Assembly: GCA_963707915.1 (NCBI GenBank) | Contig: OY970178.1 | Coordinates: forward strand, 554,098 to 618,097 | Source: Candidatus Eiseniibacteriota bacterium | Lineage (GTDB): Bacteria; Eisenbacteria; RBG-16-71-46 | DNA: 64,000 nt | Direction of reading: 5' to 3' | Shown here: positions 43,492 through 48,978 of the stretch, in pieces | Position numbering within the stretch: the stretch's first letter is position 1 | Layout of the letters: every line of letters begins with the position of its first letter | Position numbers and translations under genes: made by a program | The notes under the pieces: model-generated | The model's database searches: none | The model's input: the letters and a program-made list of their open reading frames with translations, nothing else | What the model was told of the DNA's origin: nothing

Positions 43492-43878
43492 GTGATCCGC
43501 CGGCCCCGTCCCACCGCCGGAGCGGACCCCATCGTCCTGCTGAAGGCCGCGGCGCGCGCGGCGCTCGCCAAGAAGGCGCACGACCTCGTGGCGCTCGACC
43601 TGCGGGGCCTCGACGCGGTCTGCGACGGGTTCCTGCTGTGCTCGGCGTCGAGCGACGTGCAGGTCAAGGCGGTGGCGGAGAGCATCGAGGAGGCGCTGCG
43701 GGAGCAGGGCCTGCGCCCCTGGCACGTCGAGGGGCTGCAGGGGCGTCGCTGGGTGCTGCTCGACTACGTGGGCGTCGTGATCCACGTGTTCCACGAGAAG
43801 ACCCGGGAGTACTACCTGCTCGACCGGCTCTGGGGCGACGCGAGGAGCGTGGATCTTGGTCTGGAAGGAACTGACTGA
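43492..43878 (+). CDS. rsfS: Ribosome silencing factor
   Basis: KKA.D...LD, D.F..CSA.S..QVKA, WVLLDY..V.IHVF....REYY.L..LW.DA. Confidence 0.95.
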   Translation: MIRRPRPTAGADPIVLLKAAARAALAKKAHDLVALDLRGLDAVCDGFLLCSASSDVQVKAVAESIEEALREQGLRPWHVEGLQGRRWVLLDYVGVVIHVFHEKTREYYLLDRLWGDARSVDLGLEGTD

Positions 43879-45610
43879 GGGCCTGGACGCCGCGTTGCGC
43901 GGGACGGGACTCCACACTCCCGAGCGCATGGCGCGGCTCGAACTCTCCATCCCGCGCGAAAGCGCGCACGGGGACTGGACCACCAACCTCGCGCTGTTGA
44001 TCGCCAGGGAGGTCGGGCGGCCGCCCCGCGCGGTGGCCGAGGCCCTGGCGGCGGCCTTCCCGCGCGACCCGGCGTTGTTCGCGAGCGTCGAGGTCGCGGG
44101 CCCGGGCTTCCTCAACTTCCGCTACAGCGAGGCGTTCCTCGACCGCCTGCCCGGGCACGTCCTGGATTCGGGTGGGGGGTTCGGCACGAGCGTGGGCGGC
44201 GGCGGGGCGCGCGTGCTGGTGGAGTACGTGAGCGCGAACCCGACCGGGCCCCTGAACATCGTGAGCGCGCGCGCCGCCGCGGTGGGCGCGACGCTGGTGC
44301 GGTTGCTGCGGGCGACCGGGCACGACGCGGCGGGCGAGTTCTACGTCAACGACGCGGGCCGCCAGGTGGACCTGCTCGGCCAGTCGGTGGCCGCGCGCTT
44401 CGCCGAGGCCGCGGGGCTCGACCGCGCGTTCCCGGCGGGGGGCTACGAGGGCGAGTACGTGCGCGATATCGCCGCGGCGTTGCCGCCGCAGGATGCGCGC
44501 GCGGCGCTGGACGCAGCCGCGGGGGCGGCGTGGTTCCGCGACCAGGCGCTGGACCAGATGGTGCGCGAGCAGCGCCGCGACCTCGACGAGTACGGCGCGG
44601 AGTTCGCGCGTTGGTTCCGCGAGTCCGAGCTCCACCGTTCCGGGGACGTGGCGGCGACGCTGGCCGAGCTCGAGGCGCGCGGCATGACCTACCGTGCGCG
44701 GCTTCCCGAGGTGGACCGGACCCCGGAAGGCGTCGGGGCGGAGGGCCCGGCGGCCGCTGCCGGGGAGCTGGAGGAGGCGACGTACCTGCGCACCGGCCGC
44801 TTCGGCGACGACAAGGACCGGGTGATCGTGCGCAGCGACGGCACGCCGACCTACCTGCTCCCGGATCTCGCCTACCATCGCGACAAGCGGGGCCGCGGCT
44901 TCGGGGTCGCGATCGACCTCTGGGGGCCCGACCACCACGCCTACGTCACCACCATGAAGGCGGCGCTCGCCGCGCTGGGGGTCGAGGACGGGTTCCTCGA
45001 GGTGCTGATCGTCCAACAGGTGAACCTCTGGGAGACCGGTGCCGACGGCCGGCGGGAGCAGGTCAAGATGAGCAAGCGGCGCGGGCGGATCATCACGCTG
45101 CGCGACCTGGTCGACGACATCGGGGCCGAGTGCGCGCGGTTCTTCTTCCTGATGCGCTCCACCAACGCCCACCTCGACTTCGACCTGGACGTGGCGCGCC
45201 GGCAGAACGACGAGAACCCGGCCTTCTACGTGCAGTACGCGCACGCGCGCATCGCCTCGATCCTGCGCTACGCGGCCGAGCGTGGCCTGCGGCCGGCGGA
45301 CGGGGCCACGCTGCGGCTCACGGTCCCGGAAGAGGTGGCGCTGGTGCGGCGCCTGGCCGTCTACCCGGAGCTGGTGCGTGGGGCGGCGGCGGCGCGCGAG
45401 CCGCACCGCCTGCCCGCCTACCTGGTCGAGACGGCGGCCGAGTTCCACCGCTTCTACCACGCCTGCCGGGTCGTGGGGGAGGACGCGGGCGTGAGCCGCG
45501 GGCGGCTGCTGATCGCCGAGGCGGCCCGCGTCGTGCTGGCGAACGGGCTCGCGCTGATGGGTGTTTCGGCCCCCGAGCGCATGGAACGCGCCGCGGAGGT
45601 CCCCGCGTGA
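43856..45610 (+). CDS. argS: Arginyl-tRNA synthetase
   Basis: AGPGFLNF, VEYVSANPTGPL, EFYVND.G.Q, DDKDRV, KMSKR.G, NP.FYVQYAHARI.SI, GVSAPERM. Confidence 0.96.
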   Translation: MVWKELTEGLDAALRGTGLHTPERMARLELSIPRESAHGDWTTNLALLIAREVGRPPRAVAEALAAAFPRDPALFASVEVAGPGFLNFRYSEAFLDRLPGHVLDSGGGFGTSVGGGGARVLVEYVSANPTGPLNIVSARAAAVGATLVRLLRATGHDAAGEFYVNDAGRQVDLLGQSVAARFAEAAGLDRAFPAGGYEGEYVRDIAAALPPQDARAALDAAAGAAWFRDQALDQMVREQRRDLDEYGAEFARWFRESELHRSGDVAATLAELEARGMTYRARLPEVDRTPEGVGAEGPAAAAGELEEATYLRTGRFGDDKDRVIVRSDGTPTYLLPDLAYHRDKRGRGFGVAIDLWGPDHHAYVTTMKAALAALGVEDGFLEVLIVQQVNLWETGADGRREQVKMSKRRGRIITLRDLVDDIGAECARFFFLMRSTNAHLDFDLDVARRQNDENPAFYVQYAHARIASILRYAAERGLRPADGATLRLTVPEEVALVRRLAVYPELVRGAAAAREPHRLPAYLVETAAEFHRFYHACRVVGEDAGVSRGRLLIAEAARVVLANGLALMGVSAPERMERAAEVPA

Positions 45611-46536
45611 GCGCCGCGCCGGAGATCCTGGTGGTGGGGTCGGTCGCGCTCGACTCGGTGCGCACGCCGTACGGCGAGGTGGTCGAGGCGCTGGGCGGAT
45701 CGGCGTCGTACTTCTCGCTCTCGGCGAGCCGGTTCGCCCCGGTGAGCATGGTCGCCGTGGTCGGCGAGGACTTCCCGCCCGAGCACCGCGCGCTCTTCGA
45801 GGCCCGCGGCATCGACCTGTCCGGCCTGGAGACCAGCCCGGGAAGGACCTTCCGCTGGCGGGGCGAATACGGCCCGGAGCTGGCGCACGCGCACACGCTC
45901 GAGACCCAGTTGAACGTCTTCTCGACCTTCCACCCGCGGCTCGAGGAGCAGCACCGCGAGTGTCCGTACGTCTTCCTCGCCAACATCGACCCCGAACTGC
46001 AGCTCGAAGTGCTCCAGCAGATGAAGCGGCCCCGGTTCACGCTCAGCGACACCATGGACTACTGGATCGCGCGCAAGCCGGAGCTCGTGCTGGAGGTGCT
46101 GCGGCGGGTGGACGTGGCGCTGCTGAACGAGGAGGAGGCGCGGGCGCTGGCGGGGGAGAGCCTGCTGGTGCGGGCGGCCGACCGCCTGCTCGAGCAGGGC
46201 GCGAAGTCCGTCATCATCAAGAAGGGCGAGCACGGGGCCCTGTTCCGCACGGCCGGGGAGCGCTTCATCATCCCCGCGTTCCCGGTGGACGCGATCCGGG
46301 ACCCCACCGGGGCCGGCGACTCGTTCGCCGGCGGCTTCCTGGGCTGGGTGGCGCGGTGCGGTCGGACCGAGGGGGGCATGCTCCAGCAGGCGATGGCCTG
46401 CGGGACGACCATGGCGTCCCTGGCCATCGAGGATTTCAGCCCGAGGCGGCTGGCCGAGGCGGGCTCGGACGAGATCGCGCGGCGCGTGGCCCTGCTGCAC
46501 CGCATGGTGCACTTCGACCTGGTGCCCCTCTCCTAG
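45607..46536 (+). CDS. PfkB-family carbohydrate/nucleoside kinase
   Basis: GSVALD, LGGSASY, N..EA, KKGEHG, DPTGAGDSFAGG. Confidence 0.92.
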   Translation: MSAAPEILVVGSVALDSVRTPYGEVVEALGGSASYFSLSASRFAPVSMVAVVGEDFPPEHRALFEARGIDLSGLETSPGRTFRWRGEYGPELAHAHTLETQLNVFSTFHPRLEEQHRECPYVFLANIDPELQLEVLQQMKRPRFTLSDTMDYWIARKPELVLEVLRRVDVALLNEEEARALAGESLLVRAADRLLEQGAKSVIIKKGEHGALFRTAGERFIIPAFPVDAIRDPTGAGDSFAGGFLGWVARCGRTEGGMLQQAMACGTTMASLAIEDFSPRRLAEAGSDEIARRVALLHRMVHFDLVPLS

Positions 46537-46614
46537 GCCTTCGACGGCCGCGGGTTAGACGTCCCTTCTCACGGTGGGCGCGAAGCGCGCCGACCGTGGC
46601 GATGCCGAGGAGCC

Positions 46615-46635
46615 CTGTGCTAGAATGAAGCACAG
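46615..46635 (+). promoter_or_regulatory. Extended -10 promoter (TG-n-TAGAAT) inside a 7-bp inverted repeat
   Basis: CTGTGCT-AGAATGA-AGCACAG upstream of the 46.7-kb module. Confidence 0.5.
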
Positions 46636-46680
46636 TCCCCTCATCCGAAGGGAAGGAGACCAGCGGTGGAAGACACGCGG

Positions 46681-47394
46681 ATGTCATGGAAGACGGACGC
46701 CGAGCAGGGGATCCGTGGCCTGCCGGACGTCGAGGACGCGAAGATCCTCGTGGAGGCCGGCGAGATCCGCGAGGTCCACGTCATTTCGTCGGCACGCAAG
46801 CCGGCGAAGCTCATCGTCAAGGACGTGGTCGGCCTGATCTGGACCCGCTACAACCGGCGCATCGACCACCGCATCGTCGGCGTGGTGCGCGTCCGGTCGC
46901 AGGCGGACTCGGCCGCGAAACCCGAGCCCGTGAGCGTGCTCGAGGAGGCCGCGCCGGCGCCGCCGGACGCCAGCCGCGTCCGCTTCGGGAGCGTCAACCT
47001 CTACATGGACGGCGCGCGCGGCCAGGCGCAGGTGGAATTGCGCTGGAAGGGCATGCTGCGCATGGGAAGCGCCTCCGGCTGGTGCTCGCGGCAGGGGTCG
47101 CACCGCCTGGTGGCGGCCGCCACGCTGACGGCGCTGCAGGAGTTCCTCGACGACGACGTCGCCCTCGGAGTGGAGGGCGTGCACGTGGTGGGCATGGGCG
47201 GCCACGAGATCGTGATCGTGGGCGTCACGCTGCTCACGCACCGGCAGGAGAAGCTCCTGACCGGCTGTTGCACGGTGGGCCGCGATCTCCCCCAGGCGGT
47301 CGTCCTGGCCTCCCTTTCAGCCTTGAATCGCGTGATCGGCGGCCTGAAGACGAAGGAGCCGATCGAGTACGTCTTGAGACCGGCATCGACCTAG
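46681..47394 (+). CDS. Hypothetical two-domain cytoplasmic protein; C-terminus resembles the LeuA allosteric domain
   Basis: Clean GC3-biased ORF (GTG 46666 is an alternative start); A.V.L...G....G..S.....AT..AL ... GC......AVV.A.L.ALNR pattern. Confidence 0.75.
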   Translation: MSWKTDAEQGIRGLPDVEDAKILVEAGEIREVHVISSARKPAKLIVKDVVGLIWTRYNRRIDHRIVGVVRVRSQADSAAKPEPVSVLEEAAPAPPDASRVRFGSVNLYMDGARGQAQVELRWKGMLRMGSASGWCSRQGSHRLVAAATLTALQEFLDDDVALGVEGVHVVGMGGHEIVIVGVTLLTHRQEKLLTGCCTVGRDLPQAVVLASLSALNRVIGGLKTKEPIEYVLRPAST

Positions 47395-47496
47395 GAGCCA
47401 GCGGAGCGACAAGACAATCGAGAAGCGAAGCGAAGCCGCCTGTCGGGAAGCTGTTCGTACCCGCAGAGTCCCATGCCAAGTAAGGAGGTGGGCTTC

Positions 47497-47547
47497 GTGC
47501 TCTTTATCCTCGAGCTCTTGGAGTTCTTCGGCCGCGCGGGCTGGTAA
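47497..47547 (+). CDS. Putative 16-aa hydrophobic micropeptide MLFILELLEFFGRAGW
   Basis: Perfect SD TAAGGAGGTG (47481-47490) 6 nt upstream of GTG; TAA stop; between the hypothetical gene and the HD-GYP gene; too short for the ORF track. Confidence 0.6.
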   Translation: MLFILELLEFFGRAGW

Positions 47548-47652
47548 CCTAGTCCCGTACGTCCGGACCTAGGAAGTGACCTCCGAAGTGGATGCCGGTC
47601 TCTGCATCTTCACGCATGCGGAAGCCCACCCGCCCCCGATGATCGACCTCGC

Positions 47653-48978
47653 ATGAAAGACTCGCCGGTCCCGACCCACCCGCGCGCGTTCCGGCTCTAC
47701 TACGCGCTCGTGGTGCTGGCCGCAGGCGCCTTCTTCGTGCTGGCCACGCCCACGGCGGGGGCGCCGCGGCTGGTGGCCCTGGGCGTCGTCCTGGTGCTGA
47801 TGGTCGTGAGCGAGGCCCGCCCGGTGCCGCTCCCGAGCGGCGGCTACGCCACCGGCAGTGCCGTGCTCGACCTGGCGTCGATCATCATCCTGGGCCCGGT
47901 GTGGACCGCGTGGGTGGACCTGGCCAGCACGGTGATCGTGCAGGGCGTCCTGCTGCGCCGGCCCCTGGTGCGCGTGCTGCACAACGTGTCCATCTTCGCG
48001 CTCACCTCGTTCGTGGCGGGCTACGCCTTCCTGGCCGCCGGGGGGCAGGTGGGCACCCTCGCGTTCCCGCGGCACATCGTGCCGCTGCTGGTGTGCGGGG
48101 GCGTCTACTTCCTCTGCAACTCGACGCTGGTCTCGACCGTGCTGGGGCTCACGGTGGGCCCCGGACCGTGGCGCATCTGGCAGCGCAACTTCCTGCAGGG
48201 GATCCTGCACCACCTCTCCTTCGTGGCCCTCGGCACGCTGGTGGCCGTGGTCTTCTTCAGCGCGGGGCCGTGGGGCCTCGTGCTGGTGGGGATCCCGTTC
48301 CTGGTCGCACGCCACTCGTTCGGCGTCTACATGGAGATCCGCGCGGACCTCAAGGACTTCGTCCGTGCCCTGTCCGAGGTGCTCGAGGAGGTGGATCCGT
48401 ACACCCGCCACCACTCGCACCGGGTCGCGCAATACGCGGTGCTGCTGGCGCGCGGCATGCGGCTCTCGGAACGCGAGGTCGAGGAGATCGAGTACGCGGC
48501 CCTGGTGCACGACCTGGGCAAGATCGGGCCGCAGCACCAGCACATCCTGCAGAAGCCGGGCTCGCTGTCGCACGAGGAGCAGCGCACCTTGCGGGCCCAC
48601 CCGGCTGCCGGGGCCGAGATCGTCGCGCGGGTCCGGGCGCTGCGGCGCTCGGCGGAGATCGTGCGCACCCACCACGAGCGGCCCGACGGCCAGGGCTACC
48701 CGCTGGGCCTGCACGCGGAGGACGTGCCGGTGGGGGCCCGCATCCTGAACGTGTCGGACGCGTTCGACGCGATGACCTCGGACCGCCCGTACCGGCGGGC
48801 GCTGTCGGTGGCGGCGGCGCTCGACGAGTTGCGGCGCGGCGAGGGCTCGCAGTTCGACCGGGCCGTGGTGGAGTGCCTGCTGCGCCTCTACGGGTCGGGA
48901 CAGTTCCCGCTGATCCCGAGTCCCACGAGCGAGGACCTGCAGCTGTTGCGCCTGAAGCCGCGCGAGGCCCAGGGCTGA
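47653..48978 (+). CDS. Membrane-integral HD-GYP cyclic-dinucleotide phosphodiesterase
   Basis: ~230-aa multi-TM N-terminus; DPYT..HS.RV, HDLGKIG, HHERPDGQGYP, DAFDAMTSDRPYR. Confidence 0.92.
   Translation: MKDSPVPTHPRAFRLYYALVVLAAGAFFVLATPTAGAPRLVALGVVLVLMVVSEARPVPLPSGGYATGSAVLDLASIIILGPVWTAWVDLASTVIVQGVLLRRPLVRVLHNVSIFALTSFVAGYAFLAAGGQVGTLAFPRHIVPLLVCGGVYFLCNSTLVSTVLGLTVGPGPWRIWQRNFLQGILHHLSFVALGTLVAVVFFSAGPWGLVLVGIPFLVARHSFGVYMEIRADLKDFVRALSEVLEEVDPYTRHHSHRVAQYAVLLARGMRLSEREVEEIEYAALVHDLGKIGPQHQHILQKPGSLSHEEQRTLRAHPAAGAEIVARVRALRRSAEIVRTHHERPDGQGYPLGLHAEDVPVGARILNVSDAFDAMTSDRPYRRALSVAAALDELRRGEGSQFDRAVVECLLRLYGSGQFPLIPSPTSEDLQLLRLKPREAQG

Follow-up and report, generated by a model that had tools for sequence, protein, structure and literature searches.

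We describe a 16-codon small open reading frame (smORF) that lies behind a strong Shine-Dalgarno (SD) sequence in a 64,000-nt stretch of DNA from Candidatus Eiseniibacteriota bacterium (assembly GCA_963707915.1, contig OY970178.1, positions 554,098 to 618,097 of the forward strand; this whole stretch is called the window below, and positions are numbered from its first letter). To judge from its conservation in relatives, the smORF is very probably a real coding gene and not a chance ORF. The peptide ends in a modular G-[KR]-x-G-W unit, the gene keeps its place between the same two neighbours, and a covarying long-range RNA helix, P1, encloses it. The reading that we favour overall, with a probability of roughly 0.45, is that the peptide would act in trans by docking its GKxGW unit on a neighbouring protein, and that its synthesis would be gated by the surrounding RNA. 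The two features on which the description rests are as follows.

47497..47547, plus strand: smORF, GTG start, 16 codons, TAA stop at 47545-47547; product MLFILELLEFFGRAGW (GTG read as Met).
47481-47490, plus strand: Shine-Dalgarno sequence TAAGGAGGTG; (A/G)AGGAGGTG is retained at nearly all loci.

Coding status and conservation of the smORF

A 6-nt spacer, GGCTTC, separates TAAGGAGGTG from the GTG at 47497, so that the SD and the GTG-started 16-codon ORF at 47481-47547 are present as the preliminary description of this DNA had reported them. The smORF is located inside a gap of 258 nt that is bordered by two ORFs of the same strand, one encoding a 242-residue protein that we call up242 (46666..47394) and the other a protein of the HD-GYP type (47653..48978), which begins 105 nt downstream of the smORF. 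The region had also been described as AT-richer than its surroundings, in agreement with GC contents of 61.6% in the gap and 58.8% in the smORF against 73.7% in the window. Despite a GC content of ~59%, third positions of the smORF are G or C in 15 of its 16 codons (GC content at third positions, GC3, of 0.94), as is characteristic of the codons of real genes in this genome. A 24-residue version starting from an ATG at 47473 had been put forward as well. The in-frame ATG exists (47473..47547), but it is without a separate SD and is unconserved, being found in two of the 14 aligned rows (G000 and G005).

On its own, an SD followed by a short ORF is weak evidence, and it is the conservation in relatives that lifts the feature far beyond chance. 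The 9-mer AAGGAGGTG occurs once in the window against 0.18 copies expected, and at least one copy is present in 16 of 100 shuffles. Over the whole genome (3.62 Mb) there are 32 copies, only 8 of which have a start codon 4-10 nt later. As a separate observation, a perfect AAGGAGGTG near position 1134137 of G000:C1, on the minus strand, precedes another tiny ORF (22 codons, Lys-rich, repetitive, MAAKKKVAKKKVAKKKVAKKKK).

For the comparison with relatives we used 206 species genomes of the phylum, all from one class (G026 enters the 206-genome tallies only). DNA of the gap matched 14 of 41 genomes, namely G000, 13 of the 24 other genomes of family f1 and none of the 16 outside f1. In all 14 there is (A/G)AGGAGGTG together with a GTG-initiated ORF of 16 codons that ends in [RK]AGW, one of them extended to 19 codons by an in-frame 9-nt insertion, and up242 and the HD-GYP gene flank the smORF in 14 of 14. 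A fifteenth DNA match, which is a second one of 33 nt in G013, is without the smORF. The exact leader-RNA pattern was found in 19 of the 206 genomes, all of them f1 and with one copy each, while the reversed-pattern control gave none; by this count the smORF is single copy.

The smORF reaches well beyond the genomes whose DNA can be matched. In 40 further genomes we inspected the DNA downstream of up242 and found a short ORF that follows an SD and has a tail of this type in 25 of 25 f1 and 12 of 15 other-family genomes, the three loci without it being those of G038, G066 and G044; the HD-GYP gene comes next in 38 of the 40. All of 8 further loci outside family f18 carry the smORF. Among 20 more other-family loci it is present in 6, cut by a contig end after the ORF begins in 1 and absent in 13, and at several of these 13 a purM-like ORF, recognized by eye, follows up242. 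Family f18 has HD-GYP-like genes, but up242 is found in 0 of its 41 genomes, and of 12 upstream regions inspected for these genes, in which a different gene is located, none has such an ORF. The smORF is present in most other families in which both flanking genes are adjacent. A search of a species-representative collection with the up242 alignment returned 56 loci, nearly all titled Candidatus Eisenbacteria, and 56 of 56 carry the smORF; these loci overlap the genomes of the other tallies. The preliminary description had suggested looking for the SD and ORF ahead of orthologous HD-GYP genes, and the HD-GYP gene is adjacent in 14/14 and 38/40 loci. Close relatives show no frame disruption and no loss of the SD, which is nearly invariant. 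In the smORF's usual place at locus L170 (G041, family f7), a tRNA-like sequence was noticed by eye ~190-270 nt after up242.

Selection acts at the peptide level. Among 35 distinct 16-codon ORFs the proportion of synonymous differences (pS) is 0.52, and the ratio of the nonsynonymous proportion to it (pN/pS) amounts to 0.22 over the five codons of the tail as against 0.66 over codons 2-11, for a set filtered to have Gly at the first tail position, which excludes Thr and Ser variants. Of 64 loci, 51 conform to a strict pattern for the tail, and in these the first Gly is encoded by 4 different codons, Lys/Arg by 7, Ala by 4 (GCG, GCC, GCT, GCA) and the second Gly by 4. The basic tail position in the 35 ORFs is K in 17, R in 16 and Q in 2, and the part of the peptide before the tail (the N-part) keeps a pattern of its own, acidic at positions 2, 6 and often 9 and hydrophobic otherwise. 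Lengths, counted by hand at 56 loci, are 8, 12 and 13 codons (one locus each), 16 (39 loci), 17 (11), 18 (2) and 19 (1), and as they range from 8 to 19 codons in frame, the insertions and deletions are of whole codons. The 56 loci start with GTG (35) or ATG (21) and stop with TAA (42), TAG (12) or TGA (2); over 60 distinct ORFs the stops are TAA 41, TAG 17 and TGA 2, and those of the 19 Pfam-supported genes in the window are TGA 12, TAG 7 and TAA 0. The terminal Trp is present at 56 of 56 same-family loci. The tail pN/pS, the whole-codon indels and the conserved SD and start support what had been claimed of a genuine coding micro-gene, and the synonymous-biased conservation and the invariant terminal Trp that had been anticipated for it are both found.

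The tail takes the form G-[KRQ]-[AGNSV]-[GS]-W, or GGH[AT]WW in family f17, and has Pro at no locus. Peptides of family f3 have 2-3 copies of (D/E)GK[GA]GW behind a conserved leader, and their repeat tails are acidic; in 4 of 4 genomes of its genus g22 the leader is followed by three units, ...DDGKAGWD...DGKGGWD...GKAGW. In f17, where His occupies the basic position, the unit is found as a single copy (GGQSNWW), as two (SGGHTWW) or as three (GGHAWW). Since f3 and f17 repeat different units, the unit has been multiplied at least twice independently. A profile search of public metagenomes returned 92 proteins of 27-50 residues, none informatively named, and the 27 of these that were read have a conserved hydrophobic/acidic leader and 1-3 units, the last of which is in nearly every case GKAGW and then the stop. 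The N-part of other families consists of 15-20 uncharged hydrophobic residues before GGRAGW or GKAGW, and 1-6 residues may follow the Trp. The minimal version is from a metagenome-assembled genome (MAG) with a complete chromosome, which encodes only VKMGKAGW, with an N-part of 3 residues and with the SD, up242 and HD-GYP gene intact. The tail is thus retained when the N-part shrinks and is also multiplied, so that the unit is the constant element and the N-part the variable one. Most likely the unit is the functional element of the peptide, and its variable copy number is consistent with a precursor or a docking peptide. The signalling-peptide or small-regulator role that had been proposed would be compatible with these findings.

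No known protein or RNA family matches the peptide or its leader. The 24-aa frame of the window and six relatives of 21-50 aa gave no match in Pfam or NCBIfam, and a search of the ESM Atlas with the homologue P0148 gave no usable match. In the literature nothing describing the peptide was found, though supplementary lists of small ORFs may hold it, and strings of the tail motif matched by chance only; nothing relevant turned up on small ORFs in connection with HD-GYP proteins or on small membrane proteins in connection with c-di-GMP. The leader has no Rfam match within 47395-47652 at E values up to 10; three weak ones elsewhere in 46500-48500 are far below gathering scores.

The RNA around the smORF

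RNAalifold, applied to 14 sequences, gave a 12-bp long-range helix, P1, that encloses the smORF and has compensatory changes at three pairs. The elements of this leader are listed below.

47376-47387, plus strand: 5' arm of P1, GAGACCGGCATC, in the last codons of up242 (RNAalifold pairing).
47394-47397, plus strand: GGAG, an inner extension of P1 pairing with CTCC at 47581-47584 (91% of cells paired, one pair changed on both sides).
47400-47408 and 47424-47432, plus strand: doubled 9-mer AGCG(G/A)AGCG, copies AGCGGAGCG and AGCGAAGCG; columns nearly invariant.
47433-47442, plus strand: CCNCCT-containing stretch AAGCCGCCTG, complementary to the SD and invariant or nearly so.
47581-47584, plus strand: CTCC, partner of the GGAG at 47394-47397.
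47591-47602, plus strand: 3' arm of P1, GATGCCGGTCTC, ending 50 nt before the HD-GYP start codon.

Over 39 sequences, the P1 pair 41/320 is AU in 22, GC in 11, GU in 3, UA in 3 and unpaired in none, and another pair of the helix is UA in 18, UG in 16, CG in 1 and GU in 1. For the whole structure, 90.9% of cells are paired in these sequences as compared with 38-47% when the partners are slid. P1 is kept with different letters in other families, extending to 22 bp in G040, and the distance from its 3' arm to the HD-GYP start is ~45-56 nt at most same-family loci. A 238-nt stretch with both arms folds with -103.6 kcal/mol (z -3.2; 0 of 200 shuffles are as stable), whereas the stretch without the 5' arm has a z of 0.07. 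P1 also forms in the minimum-free-energy structure of the 238-nt stretch. The 5' arm encodes the LRPxS tail of up242 (47377-47391, its last five sense codons). As this tail is disordered in the structural model of up242, is encoded by the P1 arm and is absent where the smORF is absent (up242 there ends acidic, for example in EYEVED, when read by eye), it may be kept for the RNA.

In both the minimum-free-energy and the consensus fold the SD and the GTG are predicted to pair with the conserved upstream stretch at 47424-47442. This sequestering pairing is a prediction only, because variation there is scarce and uncompensated. A second stretch perfectly complementary to the SD and spacer, GAAGCCCACC (47621-47630, between P1 and the HD-GYP start), was discarded as it is unconserved in the genus alignment. 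The two copies of AGCG(G/A)AGCG stand ~15 nt apart in the leader, and a doubled motif is visible in other families too; its appearance suggests a binding site or a tertiary contact. The gap contains no promoter-like or terminator-like site, the sole terminator-like site in 46900-48100 being at 47712-47730, inside the HD-GYP coding sequence, and in the window the HD-GYP start is not preceded by any visible SD of the GGAG type.

Small portions of this DNA are present in 21 RNA runs from 20 studies. Contigs of relatives span the smORF in three of the four runs that were aligned (X2, 47357-47530; X3, 47434-47546; X9, 47287-47547), while those of the fourth (X1) stop at 47445, and parts of the window are uncovered by metatranscriptome contigs. 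Such contigs tell of presence in RNA libraries and carry no level, strand or ends. In run X3 an 80-nt contig has a depth of 310 against 3-9 for the up242 contigs, which is not an expression level, because the stretch is common to many species in a sample. The smORF had been described as highly expressed. This is not supported, as the SD and start are predicted to be paired in a stable RNA domain and contig depths cannot rank expression.

The neighbouring genes

The conserved gene string is limited to pfkB-up242-smORF-HD-GYP. pfkB precedes up242 in 54 of the 59 loci searched, with 70-92% identity, and a downstream sigma-54 activator was matched in 2 of the 59, most flanks being too short to judge. 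The two genes that border the smORF are as follows.

46666..47394, plus strand: up242 (242 aa), directly upstream of the smORF; its last codons hold the 5' arm of P1.
47653..48978, plus strand: MASE9 membrane sensor fused to an HD-GYP cyclic di-GMP (c-di-GMP) phosphodiesterase (441 aa); Pfam HD_5 8.9e-36, MASE9 1.2e-5.

The up242 protein is found in 152 of the 206 phylum genomes and belongs to no Pfam or NCBIfam family. Its AlphaFold2 model has a predicted local distance difference test (pLDDT) score of 78.8. Residues 103-225 of the model resemble the regulatory domain with which LeuA and citramalate synthase bind amino acids (Foldseek E 7e-5; VIA Z 8.7, root-mean-square deviation 2.9 over 108 residues), and the C-terminal domain is therefore modelled as a ligand-binding fold of the LeuA-regulatory type. 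His, Cys, Asp and Arg residues are invariant in the protein. Residues 1-78 have a common alpha/beta arrangement that scored Z ~8 to many unrelated proteins in a wide structural search, and a reading of this N-domain as a double-stranded RNA-binding domain was dropped, the Foldseek matches being weak. The translation of the HD-GYP gene has the HHExxDGxGYP motif intact, and the part of the paper defining MASE9 that was available argues for ligand binding within the membrane.

The ORFs between 28.7 and 63.7 kb are of the housekeeping kind (CCA-adding enzyme, RsfS, ArgRS, PfkB, Lnt, TruA, LysRS). Pfam scans of the same interval, which took in ORFs of at least ~100 aa that pass a GC3 filter only, the rest of the genome not being searched, revealed no radical-SAM, SPASM, P450, peptidase or ABC exporter match. 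The 668-aa ORF at 44530-46536 is over-long, as PfkB is matched only at residues 366-638 and the 5' part overlaps the ArgRS gene (43856-45610) in another frame.

Possible modes of action of the peptide

In the reading we favour, the product would be a short hydrophobic/acidic N-terminal helix followed by a C-terminal G-[KR]-x-G-W unit, and it would act in trans, either intracellularly or at the membrane. Its Trp-containing unit or units would dock on the MASE9 intramembrane sensor of the HD-GYP phosphodiesterase, or on the LeuA-regulatory-like domain of up242, and docking would tune the breakdown of c-di-GMP. The tail has been kept when the rest is lost and has been multiplied twice, which points to a peptide that works via its unit and away from a pure translation-sensing upstream ORF (uORF). 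That the peptide acts in trans through the unit has a somewhat better than even chance, and that its partner is up242 or the HD-GYP protein a little under an even one. Synthesis would be gated by the RNA, with P1 closing the mini-cistron and the SD and start pairing with the upstream CCNCCT stretch. As the 5' arm of P1 lies in the last codons of up242, ribosomes finishing up242 would unfold the domain and thereby allow the peptide to be translated, coupling the two genes.

Small proteins of the MgrB, KdpF and CydX types modulate membrane sensors and transporters beside which they are encoded. The smORF shares with them a conserved adjacency to the gene of a polytopic membrane protein, and its other-family versions of 20-24 residues, in which the helix is uncharged, resemble single membrane helices. 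In contrast to those proteins, the peptide of this family has only 11 residues before the tail, 2-3 of them acidic, versions of 8-13 residues exist, and conservation is found in the tail rather than in the helix. The small membrane regulator that had been suggested is thus a poor fit for the 16-mers of this family, with their 2-3 acidic residues, and for the 8-, 12- and 13-residue versions. More generally, for none of the systems with which we compared it does the smORF show the full set of testable defining features.

Several observations weigh against the docking peptide and its RNA gate. As transmembrane helices, the 16-mers of the family would be both too short and too acidic, and this weakens the version in which the unit binds MASE9 in the membrane. 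The smORF sits in the 5' leader of the HD-GYP gene, as a cis-acting uORF would, and repeated cores behind a leader equally resemble an exported precursor. In G038 both neighbours are adjacent, yet no smORF is seen. For the SD-sequestering helix covariation is unsupported, its columns hardly varying and their changes being uncompensated, and three of its pairs are unpaired in 7-11 of the 39 sequences. Finally, every genome is a MAG from one phylum, and kin are not independent.

An exported signal is the best placed of the alternatives, although we consider it unlikely. Here the peptide would be a precursor akin to RiPPs (peptides made by the ribosome and then modified post-translationally), with the N-part as leader and the GKxGW cores cut out, perhaps modified at Lys or Trp, released and sensed by MASE9 outside the cell or in the membrane, an autoinducer acting on c-di-GMP. 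A leader followed by 1-3 tandem cores with acidic spacers would be expected of such a precursor, as would a copy number that varies among close relatives, with independent expansion in f3 and f17, and a location beside the gene of a membrane sensor. According to the available part of PMC13361665, the pheromone precursors of streptococci are just as small and likewise lack annotation (SHPs, 22-23 aa; ComS, 17 aa, which yields the 7-aa C-terminal XIP), and peptides cross-linked between Lys and Trp exist. To the extent that this source describes them, the SHP and ComS/XIP genes are like the smORF in being tiny unannotated ORFs (17-23 codons) beside the gene of a signalling protein, with a hydrophobic N-part and a conserved part that is C-terminal and includes Trp. 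The smORF differs from them in having no receptor of the tetratricopeptide-repeat (RRNPP) type adjacent, its neighbours being the LeuA-regulatory-like up242 and the MASE9/HD_5 protein, and in its acidic N-part, its variable number of units and its origin in an uncultured phylum outside the Firmicutes.

The Lys-Trp cross-linked radical-SAM RiPPs in the same portion of PMC13361665 are streptide (KxxxW) and tryglysin (WGK), and, as given there, they share with the smORF product a short Gly-rich unit with Lys and Trp in a small precursor. The spacing here is different, K-x-G-W, and Lys is variable though Trp is invariant. The many genomes in which Arg, Gln or His stands in place of Lys speak against a Lys-Trp cross-link. 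No Radical_SAM or SPASM match was found in the ORFs scanned between 28.7 and 63.7 kb, nor any P450, peptidase or ABC exporter; the surroundings are housekeeping genes, and the conserved string holds only the four genes named above. The 8-residue version has no leader, and there is no positively charged signal of the Sec type.

Next in probability, and doubtful as well, is a leader peptide acting in cis, in which translation of the smORF, or a pause at its tail, would remodel the leader RNA and so set translation of, or read-through into, the HD-GYP gene. The smORF does lie in the leader of that gene on the same strand, enclosed by a conserved structured RNA, the distance from the 3' arm of P1 to the HD-GYP gene is fairly constant, that gene starts without a visible GGAG-type SD, and the 8-residue version retains only the SD and tail. 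The R-A-G of the tail also recalls the RAGP arrest motif of SecM. A pause site, however, needs neither the 2-3 copies of the tail seen in two families nor the 1-6 residues trailing it in some, and the N-part keeps a hydrophobic/acidic pattern. SecM-like RAPP/RAGP arrest peptides have, as far as the consulted parts of PMC10951299, PMC10951233 and PMC12992588 and general knowledge of them go, an R-A-(P/G)-P motif in which a Pro codon occupies the A site. The smORF resembles these in being a small ORF upstream of a gene that it possibly controls and in having a conserved Arg-Ala-Gly near the C-terminus. Unlike in these, Pro is present at no locus, Arg is not fixed but gives way to Lys, Gln or His, the tail may be repeated or followed by further residues, and the downstream gene encodes a MASE9/HD-GYP protein rather than a sec or yidC product. 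Attenuation leaders, which have alternative terminator and antiterminator hairpins and runs of the regulatory codon, differ too, as the leader here is free of terminator-like hairpins and the peptide has no codon runs.

A broader proposal is more doubtful still. It would make the peptide a new class of Trp-peptide signal, composed of a leader and 1-3 G-[KR/H]-x-G-W cores, with up242 maturing or binding it, MASE9 reading it out and its supply set by P1 through coupling to the translation of up242.

The two remaining explanations are very remote. A type I toxin, that is, a small hydrophobic peptide that damages membranes and whose mRNA is closed by long-range pairing, would account for the short hydrophobic product, the 5'-3' long-range helix and the predicted SD sequestration, the latter two resembling hok-type mRNAs. 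Type I toxin-antitoxin loci are, however, patchy, often multi-copy and encode membrane-spanning hydrophobic peptides, whereas the smORF is single copy and strictly syntenic across the phylum, the window peptide has three Glu against one Arg, most same-family versions have 2-3 acidic residues, the repeat tails of f3 are acidic, and acidic versions of 8-19 residues, some as short as 8-13, exist. A purely non-coding structured RNA with an incidental ORF would explain the strong conservation of primary sequence outside the ORF, the covariation of P1 and the stable fold, but not the mostly synonymous changes in the tail, the whole-codon indels, a GC3 of 0.94 or the kept SD and start, and Rfam has no match with an E value of 10 or less.

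Gene callers miss genes of 16 codons, and almost no biology is known for Candidatus Eisenbacteria. What emerges here, from sequence alone, is a peptide found across the phylum, for which a functional unit, a set of genetic partners (pfkB-up242-smORF-HD-GYP) and a predicted RNA gate can be defined. The module is ~3.4 kb and hence testable in a laboratory host even though the phylum is uncultured. If the peptide controls the MASE9/HD-GYP protein or is sensed by it, it would be the first candidate ligand or partner for a MASE9 domain and would exemplify a micropeptide that forms part of c-di-GMP signalling. Were the signal-class proposal true, the turnover of c-di-GMP would have a peptide input of the quorum type in this candidate phylum of diderms.

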